Shown here in pieces: positions 40,497-48,057 of a DNA stretch of 64,000 nucleotides. The DNA is from Candidatus Enterousia sp. (GTDB taxonomy: Bacteria; Pseudomonadota; Alphaproteobacteria; Rs-D84), in contig JAZLBQ010000024.1 of NCBI GenBank assembly GCA_045613785.1, positions 32,001-96,000 of the forward strand, given 5' to 3'. A program made the position numbers and the translations under genes. Each line of letters starts with the position of its first letter. The stretch's first letter is position 1. The notes under the pieces were generated by a model, which worked only from the letters and a program-made list of their open reading frames with translations, was not told the DNA's origin and made no database searches.

Positions 40497-41444
40497 ATGT
40501 TCCGCAAAATTTTGATTGTAGCAATGTTTGCAACGGCGGCTGGATATTGTTTTGCTGCAAATTCTTTGCCGCAGGTTGTTACGTCTCATGTGTTCTATGA
40601 ACAAGACAGAATTGTCGATGAACAGGTTGATACAACACAGGTCGATGTCGAAGAAAATGTTCAGGTCGCACGTGAAGTGCCTGCATGGCCATTGGCAGGG
40701 TCTGATGCAGACGTAGAAGTGGCTTGCGAAGGGGCGTTGTGTTCTAAGACTAAACAGCAGGATAATATTCGTATCGTGTCCAAAGTCGGGGCTGATTTAG
40801 TTGTCGAAAATAATTTTAACCTGGGGGCACGTGGTGAATTTGCTGGCTGGTCAGGTGGGGCAAATATGCTGCATGGAAACCAAATTCCTGTTGGATTCGC
40901 AGATGAATGTGATGGCTCTTCGGAAATGCCGTTGTTGCATCGTGAGGTTCTGGAAGATGATGGCGGTAATGTTTTGGCTGTTTCACGTAGTAGTCGTAAA
41001 ACATGTGGAAAATATGCAGATGGATATGAAGCCTTTGCAGTCCGTAATGGTATGAAGGTAGAAGGTGTAACTGCAGATGGTATGCGTATTTCTAATACAA
41101 CGGGTGATGGCACAGTCGTTATCGAAGAAGAAACAGAAATTGCAGTTGATACATCGGCAGATGCAGAAGCACCAGCTGTCTTGACAGATCAAGTTCGTTC
41201 ATGGGTTGTGGCAAATGGTCAGACCTTGCGTGAAGTTTTGCAGTCTTGGTGTGATAAGGAAGGCTGGGATTTGGTTTGGACAACTTCTCGTGAATACCCA
41301 ATAGAGGCAAGTGCAGTGTTTAAAGGGCGTTTTGTCGATGTTGCGTCTGCGTTGGTTCGTAACTTTGGACGTGCGACACCTGTCCCATATGCAAAATTCT
41401 ATAAAGGTAATAGAGTGTTGGTCATTTCAACAACAGAAGAATAA
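40497..41444 (+). CDS. Secreted protein with C-terminal TcpQ (type IVb pilus biogenesis) domain
   Basis: Signal peptide; WVVANGQTLREVLQSWC...GWDLVW...YPIEASAVFKGRF..YKGNRVLVI. Confidence 0.78.
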   Translation: MFRKILIVAMFATAAGYCFAANSLPQVVTSHVFYEQDRIVDEQVDTTQVDVEENVQVAREVPAWPLAGSDADVEVACEGALCSKTKQQDNIRIVSKVGADLVVENNFNLGARGEFAGWSGGANMLHGNQIPVGFADECDGSSEMPLLHREVLEDDGGNVLAVSRSSRKTCGKYADGYEAFAVRNGMKVEGVTADGMRISNTTGDGTVVIEEETEIAVDTSADAEAPAVLTDQVRSWVVANGQTLREVLQSWCDKEGWDLVWTTSREYPIEASAVFKGRFVDVASALVRNFGRATPVPYAKFYKGNRVLVISTTEE

Positions 41445-41479: not shown

Positions 41480-43108
41480 ATGAAAATTCCATTTAAACTT
41501 TTAATTTTGGGCAGTTTGATTTTTGCAACAATGACAGGCTGTGCCAGAAAAGAGTCTGCCAAGGTCGCGGCATCTGTTGATCAGGATTTTATAAATGCTT
41601 ATGATGCATTCGAAATGGCTAAAAACCCAAGAGCCAAAGTCGCAACAGGTGATACAGTTTCTATGTCAGAGGGTGTTTGGTTGGGCAGTAAATCGATGGT
41701 TTTGGAACATCGTAATAATTTGCCTTCTAAATTTGAAACTGATACAGGTGTAACAATTTTATTAGATGAACCTGTTTCTTTGCAGGTTTTGGCAAATGAT
41801 ATTTATTCGATAACAGGTATCCCCGTTAAAATCGATGGTCAGGTTTCAGCAGAAAAATTAAAAAAACAGGTAAATATCGCTTATACCGGAAAATTGTCAG
41901 GATTGTTGAGCCAGGTCGCAACTGATTTGGATTTGCTGTGGTATTATGATAAAAATTCTATTGTGTTCTATGAAACAGAAACGAAAACATTTACTTTGTA
42001 TGCATTAGGAACAGAAGTTGCATATCAGACATCTGTTTCGACAGATAATTCTAATGAAGTGTCTTTGGAATCTACGTTGAAAGAGTGGGATGAAGTTGAA
42101 AGTGCGATTTCTTCAATTATTGGTAAGGCTTCAAATGCAGACTTTACTGTTTCTCGTAGTTTGGGAACAATCACAGTGACGGCATCACCGTCCATTTTGG
42201 CACGTGTTGGCGAATATATTGAACGTCAAAATAAACGTTTAAGCCAGTTGATTACAATTGATGTAAAGGTTTTGCAGGTTACAATTTCAAATGATTCTGC
42301 ATTTGGTTTGAACTTGGCGGCAGCAATAAATTCTGCTTCTGGGTTGAATATTGTTGCAAATCCAAAAAATAATTTGGCATCAACTGAGGCTAGTTCGATG
42401 AATATTGCGGTTCTGTCAAATACAGTTTCTGCATTGACTGGTGCGACACATCAGGAAGGCTCTTCAACCGTTGAAGGGGCATATACTAACGACCAGATTA
42501 TGAATGGTTCTTTGTCAGGGGCGGCTGGTAGTAATGCTTTGATTCAGGCGTTGGCAAAGCAAGGTAAGGTTTCTTTGGTCACAAATGTTGGCGTTACAAC
42601 ACGTTCAAATCGTGTTGCACCAGTCAGCAATACCAGAACAACTGGTTATATCAAACGTTTCGAATCTAGAAACTTTACAACAGTCGAATCTAGCACTGTT
42701 GACCAAGATGATTTGGAAACAGGATTTACAATGCAGCTGTTGCCAAATGTATTAGAAAATGGTCGAATCTTGTTGTTGTTCCGTATGTCTGTTCGTGAAT
42801 TGTTGCGTATGTCAACCCAGACAATTGGTGAAGTAACTTTGCAGTTGCCAGAGGTTGAAGAACGTAGCTTTATGCAGGAAGTAATTATGGAATCTGGCCA
42901 AATGCTGGTTGTTTCAGGATTTGAAAAACAGACTAATGAAGATACTCGTTATGGCTTAGGTGATCCTGACTTTATGGCGTTGTCTGGTTCTCGTGAAACA
43001 TCGGCAACTCGTGAGGTCTTGGTGGTTATCTTGACTCCACAGGTTTTGGTTAGCCCAATGGATGTAGAACGTGGGATACAACAGCACTGGGGTGCACCAC
43101 TGAACTAA
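41480..43108 (+). CDS. Type IVb pilus lipoprotein secretin (PilN/BfpB/TcpC-like)
   Basis: Lipobox MTGC; N-domains; ITIDVKVLQV, LIQALAKQGKVS, LQLPEV, SGQMLVVSGFE, LVVILTP. Confidence 0.85.
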   Translation: MKIPFKLLILGSLIFATMTGCARKESAKVAASVDQDFINAYDAFEMAKNPRAKVATGDTVSMSEGVWLGSKSMVLEHRNNLPSKFETDTGVTILLDEPVSLQVLANDIYSITGIPVKIDGQVSAEKLKKQVNIAYTGKLSGLLSQVATDLDLLWYYDKNSIVFYETETKTFTLYALGTEVAYQTSVSTDNSNEVSLESTLKEWDEVESAISSIIGKASNADFTVSRSLGTITVTASPSILARVGEYIERQNKRLSQLITIDVKVLQVTISNDSAFGLNLAAAINSASGLNIVANPKNNLASTEASSMNIAVLSNTVSALTGATHQEGSSTVEGAYTNDQIMNGSLSGAAGSNALIQALAKQGKVSLVTNVGVTTRSNRVAPVSNTRTTGYIKRFESRNFTTVESSTVDQDDLETGFTMQLLPNVLENGRILLLFRMSVRELLRMSTQTIGEVTLQLPEVEERSFMQEVIMESGQMLVVSGFEKQTNEDTRYGLGDPDFMALSGSRETSATREVLVVILTPQVLVSPMDVERGIQQHWGAPLN

Positions 43109-43118
43109 ATTAAATATA

Positions 43119-43315
43119 ATAATTCATCTATGCGTAAATCCGCTGGCTCATGTATGTTCAATGCACTACGCCAGCGGATTTTCACATATCTAAATAATTC
43201 TATTTAATTTCACTTATTTGTTGATAATTCATCTGTGAATGGTGTCGTTTCCTTGTGTCGCTTCTGGGCACTGCGGGGACGACACTGTCCGCATCTAAAT
43301 CATTTTATTTAATTT
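43119..43315 (+). repeat. Two-unit tandem element (105-bp period): conserved flanks and loop around variable self-complementary 18-nt arms; candidate structured sRNAs or micro-ORFs
   Basis: ATAATTCATCT-[58-nt hairpin]-ATCTAAATnATTyTATTTAATTT at 43119-43210 and 43224-43315. Confidence 0.75.
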
Positions 43316-43453
43316 TTTTGTGTTGAAAACTCGTGTCTTTATAAATTGTCATGTTTTATATAAAGTTTAGCACATTAGTATGTTTTGTTTGTTGTGTGCT
43401 AAGTTGTTGTTTATATGTGTTTTTTTATGCTGATAAGAAAGCTGATTTTTTTG

Positions 43454-43483
43454 TTGCGACAGATTCGGTTTTTTTCTTATAAT
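43454..43483 (+). promoter_or_regulatory. Sigma70-type promoter sharing ACAGATTCGGT-N8-TATAAT with the tcpQ promoter
   Basis: TTGCGA...ACAGATTCGGT(43459)...TATAAT(43478). Confidence 0.6.
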
Positions 43484-43548
43484 GGTGTCGTAGGATTGAA
43501 TGAAGTGCTGGTGGTTATTTTGGTGGCATTTTCATTAAACGGGAATTT

Positions 43549-43950
43549 ATGATGTTAAAACGGATTGTTGCAATTTGTATATTTTGCCTGGGGGGATTTT
43601 ATTTCCCAGGTGTTTCTTATGCAAATTTAACTTCCAAGGGTTATGTAGATGCAATTGTAGCAGCTGTTGCAAGCAGTAAAGTCGATAAGACTGAATTTAA
43701 TAGTCATGCAAGTAATAATTCTAACCCACATGCAGTTACAGCAGCACAAGTTGGTTTGGGTAATGTGAAAAATGTTGACCAGACTAATGCTGGTAATTTA
43801 TCTTCTGGAACAGTTGCGTATGGTCGTTTGCCGGTTGGTAATACCGCTAATACTGTGGCGGCTGGTGATGATGTGCGTTTTGGAACAATTCCGACTGTTG
43901 CACCAACAGGCACACCGCCAGAAGGACAGGTTTATGTCTGGTTTAATTAG
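43549..43950 (+). CDS. Secreted protein with a phage tail-fibre-like shaft motif
   Basis: Signal peptide ending SYA; TSKGYVD; NPHAVTAAQVGLGNVKN; LSSGTV...RLP; VAAGDD.R. Confidence 0.7.
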   Translation: MMLKRIVAICIFCLGGFYFPGVSYANLTSKGYVDAIVAAVASSKVDKTEFNSHASNNSNPHAVTAAQVGLGNVKNVDQTNAGNLSSGTVAYGRLPVGNTANTVAAGDDVRFGTIPTVAPTGTPPEGQVYVWFN

Positions 43951-43959
43951 GGTTGTGTA

Positions 43960-44952
43960 ATGCCTGCAATAAATATTGCTGATATTCAAATTGTTTTGCA
44001 GACGGTTCAGACAACACAACCGGCACTTAAGTTCATGGATTCTTCTGGAAATCTTTACTATGCAGAAGCTCATTTGGGGGCCTGTGCTGACAGTTTAGTC
44101 GTTGGTGATGGTGATGCATCGTGGACAATCGGAAAATCAACATTGGTTTATGAGGCAACAAAATTTGACTCGTGTGAAAAGGTAAGTTTAAGTCCGGGGT
44201 GTTATTCGGTTGTGCTTATGGGTGGTAAAGGTGGTGCTGGTGGTAATAATGGAGATGAAGGCTCTGTAACTACAGAAGAGTATTTGAGTTTTAATTTATA
44301 TCAGACAACTGATGTTTATCTTTTACGTGGCAGTGATGGTAAGGCAGGTGGCGTGAATTCGTCGGGTGGTTTGTATTCTGGCGGCGGTGGCGGTGCATCT
44401 GGTGTGCCAAGTTTTTTTGCCGTTGATGGTAAATATATTATTTCCCAGGGTGGAACAGGTGGAACTGGTGCTGTCGCAACAAAGTCTGATGGTACGGCAC
44501 AGGATTGTGCAGCAGGTGGTGGCGGCGGTATAAGTGGGGCTCAATCAGGCATGGGGTCTGTTGGTGCGGATGCTTGGGATGCTAAAGGCTTTGTTTGTGG
44601 TGCAGGTGGCGGTGGTTCGCTGGGTGGAAAAGGTGGTAATAAGTCGTCGGGTTTCTTGTATAATGGCTCAGCAGGATTGGATGCAACGGACACGTCGGGT
44701 GGTGATGGTGGAAGTTCGTCAATTGGCGGATTGTTAGGAACTAGTTCGTCGAGTGGCGGGGCAGGTGGTGCAAATGTTGCATATTCGTGTGGCGGTCAGA
44801 CTTTTTATTCTTATGGTGGCGGCGGTGGCGGTGGTGCATCAATGGGTGGTTTGTTTGGAATTGGTGTAAATGCAAACGGCGGTGTTGGTGGCAGTGGTGG
44901 GATTGGTTCAAGTTCAACCAGTTATGTCAAAATTTATCGCTTAGGTTTATAA
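43960..44952 (+). CDS. Glycine-rich protein (tail-fibre/adhesin-like Gly-rich domain)
   Basis: Repeated GGGGG/GGxGG blocks; LSPGCYSVVLMGGKGGAG and terminal YVKIY. Confidence 0.7.
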   Translation: MPAINIADIQIVLQTVQTTQPALKFMDSSGNLYYAEAHLGACADSLVVGDGDASWTIGKSTLVYEATKFDSCEKVSLSPGCYSVVLMGGKGGAGGNNGDEGSVTTEEYLSFNLYQTTDVYLLRGSDGKAGGVNSSGGLYSGGGGGASGVPSFFAVDGKYIISQGGTGGTGAVATKSDGTAQDCAAGGGGGISGAQSGMGSVGADAWDAKGFVCGAGGGGSLGGKGGNKSSGFLYNGSAGLDATDTSGGDGGSSSIGGLLGTSSSSGGAGGANVAYSCGGQTFYSYGGGGGGGASMGGLFGIGVNANGGVGGSGGIGSSSTSYVKIYRLGL

Positions 44953-47034: not shown

Positions 47035-48057
47035 ATGTCAGATATATATAATAAGTTGTTGATTTTGAGAACGCCGGGTATTGGACCAGTAAAGTATAGG
47101 GCATTGGTTGAACGTTTCGGTTCTGTGGCGACAGCTGCACAATCTTTGAATTCAGATTTAGCGTTTTGTGATTCGGTTCTGCATGAGATGGAGGCCGCTA
47201 AGAAACAACATATATATTATATAGATGATGAAGATGAACGTTATCCTGTGGCGTTGAAGGAAATAAAAAACCATCCGCCTGTTATTTCAGTGCGTGGAAA
47301 TTTAGATGTCTTGAAGAAACAGGCTGTCGCTATTGTTGGAACAAGGCACGCAACAGCCGCAGGTATGGAATTAGTCGCCGATATTGCACAACGATTCGCA
47401 GAAAATAATGTGGCGGTTATATCTGGTATGGCAATCGGAACAGATACGGCTGCACATCGTGGGGCATTGCGTGCGAGTGGGGATTCTCAAACGATTGCGG
47501 TTTTGGCTGGCGGGGTAGATTATATTTGGCCACTGGAAAACGAACGTTTGTATCACCAGATATTAGAGCGGGGTGCTGTTGTTAGCGAAATGCCGGTTGG
47601 TTATGTCCCTGTTGCAACTAATTTTGTTCAGCGAAACCGAATCGTCGCAGGATTCGCAAATCGCTTGATTCTGGGTGAGGCAGATTTGAAATCAGGTTCA
47701 ATGACAACAGCACGATTCGCAATCGATTTTGGACGTGATGTGTGGGCAATTCCATCGCACCCCGCAGATTCCCGGGCGTTGGGGCCTAATACACTGATTC
47801 GGAGTGGTGATGCAAAACTGTGTATGGGGGTAGATGATTTTTTTGCAACTGATGAAAAAAAATCAAATGTGAAAAAAATATCAAAAAAATCTGATGCGGA
47901 ATTTAATCTAATTGACGCAATAGGAACTGTTCCTGTGTCTGAATCTGTATTGACAGGTGTTGCCAAAAAAACGATTTCGGAAATTAAAAGCGAATTGGTT
48001 GTCTTGGAATTGCAGGGTTTAGTGCGAAAAGTTGACGGTGGCTATGTTCGAAACTGA
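47035..48057 (+). CDS. dprA: DNA-processing protein DprA
   Basis: VAIVGTR, ISGMAIGTDTAAH, RNRIVAG, SGSMTTA, C-terminal LELQG. Confidence 0.93.
   Translation: MSDIYNKLLILRTPGIGPVKYRALVERFGSVATAAQSLNSDLAFCDSVLHEMEAAKKQHIYYIDDEDERYPVALKEIKNHPPVISVRGNLDVLKKQAVAIVGTRHATAAGMELVADIAQRFAENNVAVISGMAIGTDTAAHRGALRASGDSQTIAVLAGGVDYIWPLENERLYHQILERGAVVSEMPVGYVPVATNFVQRNRIVAGFANRLILGEADLKSGSMTTARFAIDFGRDVWAIPSHPADSRALGPNTLIRSGDAKLCMGVDDFFATDEKKSNVKKISKKSDAEFNLIDAIGTVPVSESVLTGVAKKTISEIKSELVVLELQGLVRKVDGGYVRN

Follow-up and report, generated by a model that had tools for sequence, protein, structure and literature searches.

Introduction

Repetitive extragenic palindromic (REP) sequences and bacterial interspersed mosaic elements (BIMEs) of enterobacteria and pseudomonads are intergenic imperfect palindromes that lie behind genes, sometimes in clusters, and are thought to protect the upstream mRNA and to modulate termination. 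attC sites are likewise hairpin sites behind open reading frames (ORFs); they are recognized by their structure, they combine conserved irregularities with a variable centre, and one of their strands folds better than the other. Here we describe a repeat that has traits of both. It was found as a tandem pair of units at positions 43107-43315 of a 64,000-nucleotide stretch of DNA, here called the window (assembly GCA_045613785.1, contig JAZLBQ010000024.1, positions 32,001 to 96,000), which belongs to a 'Candidatus Enterousia' metagenome-assembled genome (MAG) of 1.04 Mb in 26 contigs, 96.5% complete; the window contig is designated C24. The two units are subtypes A and B of a family of quasi-palindromic intergenic elements of about 104 nt, specific to 'Candidatus Enterousia' and sister genera of gut Alphaproteobacteria with genomes of ~1 Mb; the family would probably act as a 3'-end hairpin module in the place of a terminator. 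From the sequence comparisons reported below, we put the probability of this reading at roughly 0.6.

In its working principle, the element comes closest to two kinds of system, the intrinsic terminators and the intergenic palindromic repeats (REP/BIME, Correia, and Rickettsia elements), and it is a member of none of these groups. It sits in the same slot as intrinsic terminators, a few nucleotides after the stop codon, and at the efp and secretin genes the two are mutually exclusive. They also have a common plan, with an A-rich 5' side, a G+C-rich hairpin, and a T-rich 3' side on both strands. However, intrinsic terminators measure about 25-35 nt, whereas the element measures about 104 nt, has conserved flanks and an apical hairpin, and forms tandem arrays; its T-rich strand is interrupted by A and lies 12-13 nt of mismatched helix away from the G+C-rich helix. 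Like REPs and BIMEs, the element is intergenic, palindromic, located behind genes, and sometimes clustered, but REPs are far smaller and go together with RAYT (Y1) transposases, none of which was found in the window genome, and they are not known to combine a fixed scaffold with free arms. With attC sites the element shares the location behind ORFs, conserved irregularities beside a variable central part, and the better folding of one strand; however, there are no cassette arrays and no integron integrase, the neighboring genes are housekeeping genes, and the end sequences are different. In contrast to the spacers of CRISPR arrays, the variable parts of the element are complementary arms around a conserved loop, and Cas1 was not found in the window genome; nor was the reverse transcriptase (RVT_1) that a retron would have. 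The initial annotation, made from the letters of the window, had stated that the units match neither CRISPR, attC, nor REP patterns, and these membership tests bear it out.

Elements closer in size have been described from Neisseria and Rickettsia. The accessible portions of PMC2649163 and PMC2229807 describe the Correia elements of Neisseria (CREE/NEMIS) as repeats of about 100-150 bp with inverted ends and a conserved core, which are transcribed into mRNAs as long hairpins that RNase III binds or cuts, with effects on neighboring expression. The same portion of PMC2229807 assigns them 24-bp terminal repeats and TA target duplications, and it describes the Rickettsia palindromic elements (RPEs) as 105-146-bp repeats with predicted long stem-loops that are inserted in frame into protein genes. 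The element resembles the Correia repeats in its size, inverted ends, and conserved core, and RNase III is encoded in the window genome; unlike them, it shows no target duplication and has a fixed orientation, an exact location at stop codons, and hypervariable stems. With the RPEs, compared here by description and not by sequence, it shares the setting of a reduced alphaproteobacterial genome and a long palindrome, but none of its copies was seen inside an ORF.

PMC12306168 assigns the genus Enterousia to Rs-D84, an order of uncultured Alphaproteobacteria with reduced genomes. The element was not described in the literature that we found on Enterousia, Rs-D84, and palindromic repeats, and the main text of PMC12306168 contains neither 'repeat' nor 'palindrom'. 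The combination of a fixed scaffold with free arms, G.A/pyrimidine mismatches, location in the terminator slot, a 105-nt register, and no visible mobilizing enzyme appears to be new. We are thus concerned with a large structured family outside Rfam, with unusually clear covariation, from an uncultured, genome-reduced gut lineage. The family has fixed loops, free stems, and asymmetric strands, and no transposase of the families searched was found in the window genome, which raises the questions of how such repeats spread in 1-Mb genomes and whether they are read by a factor. Annotators of Rs-D84 genomes can use the family as a mark of gene and operon ends, and it accounts for assembly breaks and coverage peaks there.

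The element alternates with terminators behind genes

Two sets of units were collected on their best strand, 69 from 47 loci and 86 from 80 efp loci (155 in total). In the first set, 48 of the 69 units have a same-strand ORF of at least 70 codons upstream, with its stop codon -15 to +25 nt from the first base of the unit. The other 21 comprise 19 second or later units of arrays, one unit cut by the end of its locus, and one, from another family, without such an ORF. The stop codon is TAA in all 48 cases, against 531 of 695 long-ORF stops genome-wide. The array points the same way as the upstream gene in 48 of the 49 assessable cases, where it starts within about 15 nt of the TAA stop, and no unit examined for position was seen inside an ORF. 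The genes in front of the units are efp (nine times), ftsK (five), dnaA, secretin, and yebC (three each), dnaN, rpoA, and a T2SS-F-like gene (twice each), and groEL, tsf, rpsK, rpsM, fabF, murG, RNase J, a DAC-domain gene, FKBP, a thioredoxin-reductase-like gene, and an AMP-binding enzyme (once each); a further 11 have no Pfam match. Closeness to the stop codon is not special to the element; canonical terminators, present within 130 nt at 202 of 692 long-ORF ends in the window genome, also start at a median of 6 nt past the stop.

The occupancy of this slot was compared at orthologous gene ends by scoring the element and terminators within 40 nt. Terminators were called with a simple scanner for a hairpin plus T-tract (stem of at least 6 pairs with at least 4 G-C, loop of 3-8, at least 5 T in 8). 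In 30 genomes of the genus, the slot behind the secretin orthologue holds the element without a terminator in 14, a terminator without the element in 13, neither in three, and both in none. At the 80 efp loci, the corresponding numbers were 52, 25, two, and one. The canonical terminators in the slot are of the A-tract/GC-hairpin/T-tract type. Among the three secretin loci where neither was called, two carry hairpins that the scanner misses (A/T-rich or with a long loop), and in the third the next gene follows immediately; the two such efp loci resemble, by eye, degenerate copies of the element. In the window itself, no further terminator-like hairpin was found between the stop codon of the secretin gene and the next promoter-like site (43454-43483).

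Because the genomes are kin, a tree was calculated for 67 of the efp loci using coding DNA only; the other 13 of the 80 were omitted (short contigs), and locus L110 was set to 'element' by eye. On this tree at least ten changes of state are required, nine of them on well-supported branches. Of ten phylogenetically independent pairs that differ in the element, eight to nine have the terminator changing in the opposite direction, and no pair has it changing in parallel (sign test, p 0.004-0.008). Judging from these comparisons, which are our strongest evidence on function, the element appears able to stand in for a terminator behind efp and behind the secretin operon. The repeated, independent swaps between a terminator and a 104-nt repeat at one gene end amount to a natural experiment on what the terminator slot needs.

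The units form one long hairpin with compensating arms

The initial annotation had described two tandem 105-nt units with common flanks, identical segment lengths, and differing arms that pair within each unit, and all of this was confirmed. The period is exactly 105 nt; each unit reads ATAATTCATCT, an 18-nt arm, a 22-nt loop, the complementary 18-nt arm, and ATCTAAATnATTyTATTTAATTT. The arms of unit 1 pair at 16 of 18 positions and those of unit 2 at 17 of 18, five of the latter being G-U on the + strand. The extent that had been given, 43119-43315, needs one correction: the true start of unit 1 is 43107, where AAATTAAATA begins, which pairs with TATTTAATTT at 43201-43210 (Table 1). The two units are identical at 63 of 114 aligned columns, nearly all of them in the flanks and loop, and the flank-gap-flank pattern occurs twice in the window and in none of 100 shuffles. 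Predicted folding energies are -33.4 kcal/mol on the + strand and -40.6 on the - strand for unit 1, and -31.3 and -24.6 kcal/mol for unit 2. Compared with shuffled sequences, these correspond for units 1 and 2 to z = -8.3 and -4.0 on the + strand and -8.8 and -4.0 on the - strand; with the unit coordinates of the initial annotation, z is -4.4 to -6.5. The divergence of the arms is too great for Tandem Repeats Finder, which does not list the pair.

Covariation was scored on a hand-written structure of 42 pairs for the whole unit, in an alignment of 107 units that remained after dropping incomplete sequences and those more than 95% alike. In this alignment, 89.0% of the cells pair, against 70.4% in column shuffles (none of 500 reached the observed value), although the shuffles overstate the significance because the units are related and the structure was derived from the same sequences. 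When the partner is slid by 1-3 columns, only 33-44% of the cells pair. Both sides changed in 40 of the 42 pairs, in 908 cells. Given the slid controls and the variety of pair types in each column, there is little doubt that the long hairpin is real, and we are nearly certain that this is a selected hairpin family. The initial annotation had anticipated structured hairpins with a fixed scaffold and variable, compensating stems, and the covariation in relatives bears this out.

The unit is predicted to fold as one long, irregular hairpin with an A/T outer helix (P1), a second helix broken by mismatches (P2), an 18-bp helix of free sequence (P3), and an apical mini-hairpin. P1 consists of ten A-T pairs, and two of its columns flip jointly between AT and TA (48/45 and 47/42 of 107). 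Its 5' strand is A-rich and its 3' strand T-rich on either strand of the DNA. P2 contains a near-invariant tandem mismatch, which on the gene strand is T.C (columns 21.84) in 102 of 107 units and C.T (22.83) in 104 of 107; this is the ATCT seen on both sides of each arm pair. P3 is G+C-rich and accepts almost any sequence, with only central C-G/G-C pairs in common. The apical part starts with a T.C mismatch (102 of 107) and holds a pyrimidine:purine pair, an A-T pair, a bulged C (105 of 107), a 4-bp TGTA/TACA helix, and a variable 7-nt loop.

In total, 36 flank and loop columns are more than 90% conserved, while the DNA of loci that encode an identical EF-P protein agrees at only about 81-84%. 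We take conservation of this degree, at this divergence, as a sign of purifying selection or of frequent homogenization. By the same measure, the diversity of the arms needs no special mutator. The closest efp pair, the window genome and locus L057, is 91.5% identical, and the two carry B-A and A-A' arrays, respectively. We had considered that arms are replaced between near-identical genomes; this was withdrawn in view of the same divergence. The TAGCGT found in many apical loops recalls the CS-6 motif of plasmid single-strand origins, a likeness that we take as coincidence because the loop is variable.

Distribution, gain, and loss of units

Pattern, BLAST, and covariance-model searches of the window genome returned 15 units at 10 loci. 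Subtype A is present four times and subtype B six times. The A-B pair of the window recurs behind ftsK and behind one unnamed gene, a B-A pair lies between efp and a convergent aldolase gene, and single B units are located behind yebC and behind another gene. Five more units are more diverged; two of these are behind rpsM and rpsR. The sequence that the loci have in common ends at about 210 bp, and the flanks outside it are unrelated. Copies of one subtype show compensatory differences, for example CCGCTGG/CCAGCGG and CCGTTGG/CCAACGG. Since the arm types recur across loci of a dispersed repeat, what looked like exchangeable arms are two subtypes of the repeat. All 10 loci lie on contigs C24, C26, C8, and C1 (about 347 kb), and none on C3, C4, C7, and C12 (about 523 kb), which may reflect regional clustering in the chromosome or a mixed bin.

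The initial annotation had proposed a covariance-model search of this and related genomes, which found homologues with strong covariation. A model built from ten good units of the window genome (R1) detected the family in 18 of 24 same-genus genomes and in 1 of 16 from other families. With a model of the full-unit structure (R2, E<=1e-4), matches were obtained in 83 of 97 genomes of the genus, in 8 of 14 from other genera of the same family, in 1 of 4 from a second family, and in 0 of 25 from four further families, a count that applies to the genomes searched and is not proof of absence elsewhere. Altogether there are at least 779 covariance-model matches in 93 of 141 Rs-D84 genomes, where both strands of one unit may count. 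Unit 1 scores 119 bits with R1 and 104.5 bits with R2, and unit 2 scores 107.8 and 76.5 bits. An Rfam hit had been named as an outcome that would speak against a new family; cmscan of 42000-44500 on both strands (E<=10) returned nothing on 43107-43315, and two unrelated weak matches at 43946-43976 and 44324-44466. A scan of viral contigs for the apical motif gave one match, in a coding region and without covariance-model support, which was judged to be chance.

Arrays consist of a single unit in 90 cases, two in 22, three in five, and six in one. Contigs from two other studies join position 43187 directly to 43293, so that exactly one 105-nt unit is missing, with 8 shared bases at the joint. 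Chimeric units combine arms of different types (e.g., L066:1381-1476, L053:1501-1604, and L071:3174-3278). At the efp locus of a related MAG (L092:3065-3168), the apical loop is reverse-complemented while flanks and arms are as usual, and the two strands score 69.7 and 69.1 bits; this looks like a flip of the loop between inverted arms and was seen in 1 of the 155 units. Taken together, these changes fit recombination between flanks, loops, and arms, in the form of unequal exchange, gene conversion, and flipping of loops, and not transposition. An element could take the place of an entire terminator by homologous exchange with DNA from a relative; dprA is present in the window. Downstream of the secretin orthologues in L138, L139, L143, and L145, the second unit is truncated at the same junction, ...TATTTAATTTAAGCCTGGCAAGGAGTTTGT..., which leaves its 3' half; this junction recurs in several species.

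Target-site duplications were looked for in 83 single units whose flanks differ, and none rises above the control outside the element: where the boundary is set at the ends of the element or beyond them, no more than 4 of the 83 share a 4-mer, and the apparent maxima lie inside the element. Enzymes that could act on the units were looked for by family. The Y1 transposase/RAYT family (PF01797) was found in 1 of 41 genomes of the genus and not in the window genome; the lone copy (G044:C6:33971-34330, 119.6 bits) is an open frame of 153 aa. DDE_Tnp_1 and rve were not found in the window genome, these and Y1 being the transposase families searched, and the same holds for RVT_1 and Cas1. For the integron integrase (TIGR02249), the best match was 72.3 bits against a cut-off of 265. 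The searches for Y1_Tnp, RVT_1, integron integrase, and Cas1 thus revealed no effector-type gene family. The window genome has only two tyrosine recombinase genes.

Discussion

The element occupies the slot directly behind the stop codon, in the orientation of the gene, where sister genomes hold an ordinary intrinsic terminator, and we propose that it would be co-transcribed as the 3' end of the upstream mRNA. The resulting hairpin, equivalent to a terminator, would stop or attenuate transcription and protect the 3' end of the mRNA, and it may block transcription entering from the opposite side, where it is stronger. Our best guess is a polar element: transcription from downstream would meet a strong hairpin followed by a U-rich strand, whereas in the gene's own transcript a weaker hairpin with open flanks would attenuate, be processed, or protect the 3' end. 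RNase III and Rho are both encoded in the window genome, and given Rho, termination could also be factor-dependent. Copies would be gained and lost in the 105-nt register by recombination between conserved flanks, the arms would drift by compensatory change and be homogenized within a genome, and selection for some recognition step appears to keep the flanks and apical loop constant.

Several observations weigh against this proposal. The terminator scanner calls only 1 of 118 arrays. The G+C-rich helix of the units is not followed at once by a T-tract; on the gene strand, AUCUAAAU comes first after it. A canonical terminator follows within 130 nt downstream in 24 of 115 arrays, against 202 of 692 (29%) at ordinary gene ends, so there is no clear depletion of terminators on this genome-wide measure; we regard the comparison of orthologous sites as the informative test, rather than genome-wide depletion downstream. 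Some units lie inside usual operons (rpsM-rpsK and rpsR-rplI), where efficient termination in the direction of the gene would be harmful. Plain termination also fails to explain the conservation of the apical loop and flanks noted above (over 90%, at ~81-84% coding identity), and a plain function in the 3' untranslated region (3'-UTR) leaves the asymmetry between the strands unexplained. Of 125 distinct units, 114 reach a lower folding energy on the strand opposite to the gene (mean -46.1 kcal/mol, against -36.9 on the gene strand), and four conserved pyrimidine-pyrimidine mismatches become G.A on that opposite strand. In P2, cells with A.C/C.A, which are G.U on the opposite strand, number 171, against 20 with G.U.

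The asymmetry has further aspects. In the window, unit A follows it and unit B is an exception, as the energies given above illustrate. Read on the opposite strand, the ATCT/ATCT mismatches form a 5'-GA-3'/3'-AG-5' tandem, and the variation in P2 runs along U-A, U.G, and C-G. In the variable arms, the G.U bias is reversed, and the gene strand is favored by 123 to 71. The G.U test of strand is therefore contradictory, with P2 favoring the opposite strand and the arms favoring the gene strand. GC skew in this genome is very strong for a bacterium (+0.215 on C24, -0.196 on C8, and +0.19 on C3). The gene-strand version of the element is on the G-rich strand at 10 of 10 loci of the window genome, against 251 of 361 (70%) long, non-overlapping ORFs, and in other genomes the units of one contig are usually on one strand. 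This bias may only reflect the placement of important genes on the leading strand, and it does not strongly support a reading at the level of DNA.

These features suggest other readings of the family. It could be a protein-recognized structured RNA, such as a small RNA derived from a 3'-UTR or a mark at the 3' end of an mRNA, in which the conserved apical hairpin and internal loops would be the functional part and the 18-bp arms a spacer helix. The near-invariant positions of loop, bulge, and mismatches amid freely covarying helices fit such an RNA, as do the fixed orientation relative to the gene and the single flipped apical loop among 155 units; against it stand the better folding of the opposite strand and the lack of any Rfam relative or candidate partner protein. 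We consider it doubtful, though with some plausibility, and it overlaps with the terminator-slot module rather than excluding it. By analogy with the histone mRNA stem-loop, some housekeeping genes of Rs-D84 might end in a dedicated 3'-end element recognized by a protein. A factor may then read the apical hairpin, the bulged C, and the G.A/pyrimidine mismatches, and the polar element may let pass or process the transcript of the gene, while the opposite-strand hairpin insulates it from antisense transcription or acts on single-stranded DNA; this analogy is speculative, and we doubt it. A miniature inverted-repeat transposable element (MITE) of the Correia, RUP, or RPE kind, moved by a transposase in trans and found behind genes because insertions are tolerated there, is unlikely. 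The 10-bp, covarying P1 would provide the terminal inverted repeats, the copies are many, dispersed, in unrelated flanks, and present or absent at orthologous sites, and the size is near that of RUP (107 bp) and RPE as given in the accessible portion of PMC2229807. Yet the units lack a target-site duplication, the 96.5%-complete window genome has no Y1, DDE_Tnp_1, rve, or RVT_1 gene (the families tested), the same gene ends are occupied across many species, 48 of the 49 assessable arrays have one orientation, and no copy was seen inside an ORF.

Readings that place the action elsewhere fare worse. A hairpin site in single-stranded DNA (attC-like, Xer-like, or related to replication) would act on the strand opposite to the gene. 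The better folding of that strand, the conserved mismatches that become G.A and G.U there, the placement of all 10 loci on the G-rich strand, the gain and loss of units in register, and the one inverted loop could all be accommodated. We nevertheless find it very unlikely: the integron integrase score is far below its cut-off and there are only two tyrosine recombinase genes, the genes next to the units are housekeeping genes and not cassettes, the ends AAATTAAATA/TATTTAATTT are unlike attC core sites, and the G.U pairs of the variable arms favor the gene strand. The initial annotation had thought of hairpin cassettes inserted at an ATCT core, which finds no support, as no target-site duplication was found; the ATCT...ATCT is a conserved internal mismatch of one hairpin. 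It had also thought of a mini-array of guide-like RNAs, whose arms would address other nucleic acids. Arms that vary between units and genomes on a fixed scaffold are what this predicts, but the arms pair with each other, and two arm types recur at four and six places in the window genome. The arms have no other match of at least 14 nt in the genome beyond copies of the element and one 16-mer that contains flank, and the BLAST search against phages and plasmids (E<=10) gave chance-level matches on the A/T-rich flanks only. With Cas1, RVT_1, and Y1_Tnp not found in the window genome and plain terminators filling the same slot in sister genomes, guide-like stems are extremely unlikely.

The window locus and its neighborhood

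The features of the locus are listed in Table 1. The TAA stop codon of the secretin gene (43106-43108) shares two bases with the start of unit 1. The linker between the units recurs in the arrays at C24:21.8k and C26:35.4k.

Table 1. Features of the tandem pair and the gene in front of it, in coordinates of the window
Feature	Position	Strand	Remarks
Secretin gene, 542 aa	41480..43108	+	ORF list; Pfam Secretin, E 1.7e-13
Unit 1, subtype A	43107..43210	+	Complete 104-nt quasi-palindrome: P1-P2-P3, apical hairpin, P3'-P2'-P1'
Unit 1, P1 5' strand, AAATTAAATA	43107..43116	+	Predicted to pair with 43201-43210 (TATTTAATTT, exact complement)
Unit 1, P2 5' strand, carrying conserved ..CATCT	43118..43129	+	T.C / C.T tandem mismatch against 43188-43199
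Unit 1, left flank ATAATTCATCT	43119-43129	+	From sequence
Unit 1, variable arm 1 (P3 5' strand)	43130..43147	+	
Unit 1, conserved apical region, 22 nt	43148..43169	+	T.C mismatch, Y:R pair, A-T pair, 4-bp mini-helix of TGTA/TACA type, variable 7-nt loop, bulged C
Unit 1, variable arm 2 (P3 3' strand)	43170..43187	+	
Unit 1, right flank ATCTAAATAATTCTATTTAATTT (P2 and P1 3' strands)	43188..43210	+	
Linker CACTTATTTGTTG, 13 nt	43211..43223	+	Replaces P1 5' strand in second units of arrays
Unit 2, subtype B	43224..43315	+	Left flank 43224-43234, arm 43235-43252, apical region 43253-43274, arm 43275-43292, right flank 43293-43315

The neighborhood is as the initial annotation had it, with a TcpQ-like gene and the secretin gene upstream and ORFs without a Pfam match downstream. 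The TcpQ-domain protein (40497-41444) pairs with the secretin, and dprA is located at 47035-48057; together, the three hint at a type IVb-like pilus or a competence apparatus in this 1-Mb genome. The downstream ORFs without a Pfam match are at 43549-43950 and 43960-44952, and the latter contains short 9-nt repeats, GGTGGTAAA / GGTGGAACA. In the relative L156, a homologue of the former follows the secretin stop directly, with neither element nor terminator in between.

A reading of the units themselves as small ORFs (ATG/GTG...stop) was rejected; the start codon is GCG in five of six B units, and one B unit has a 1-nt deletion. Across four metagenome runs, contig depth summed over 43112-43315 reaches several-fold to about 20-fold that of the flanks (in run X1, 988-1054 against 56). 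The raised depth fits a multi-copy repeat that is common to many strains and that would break short-read assemblies.

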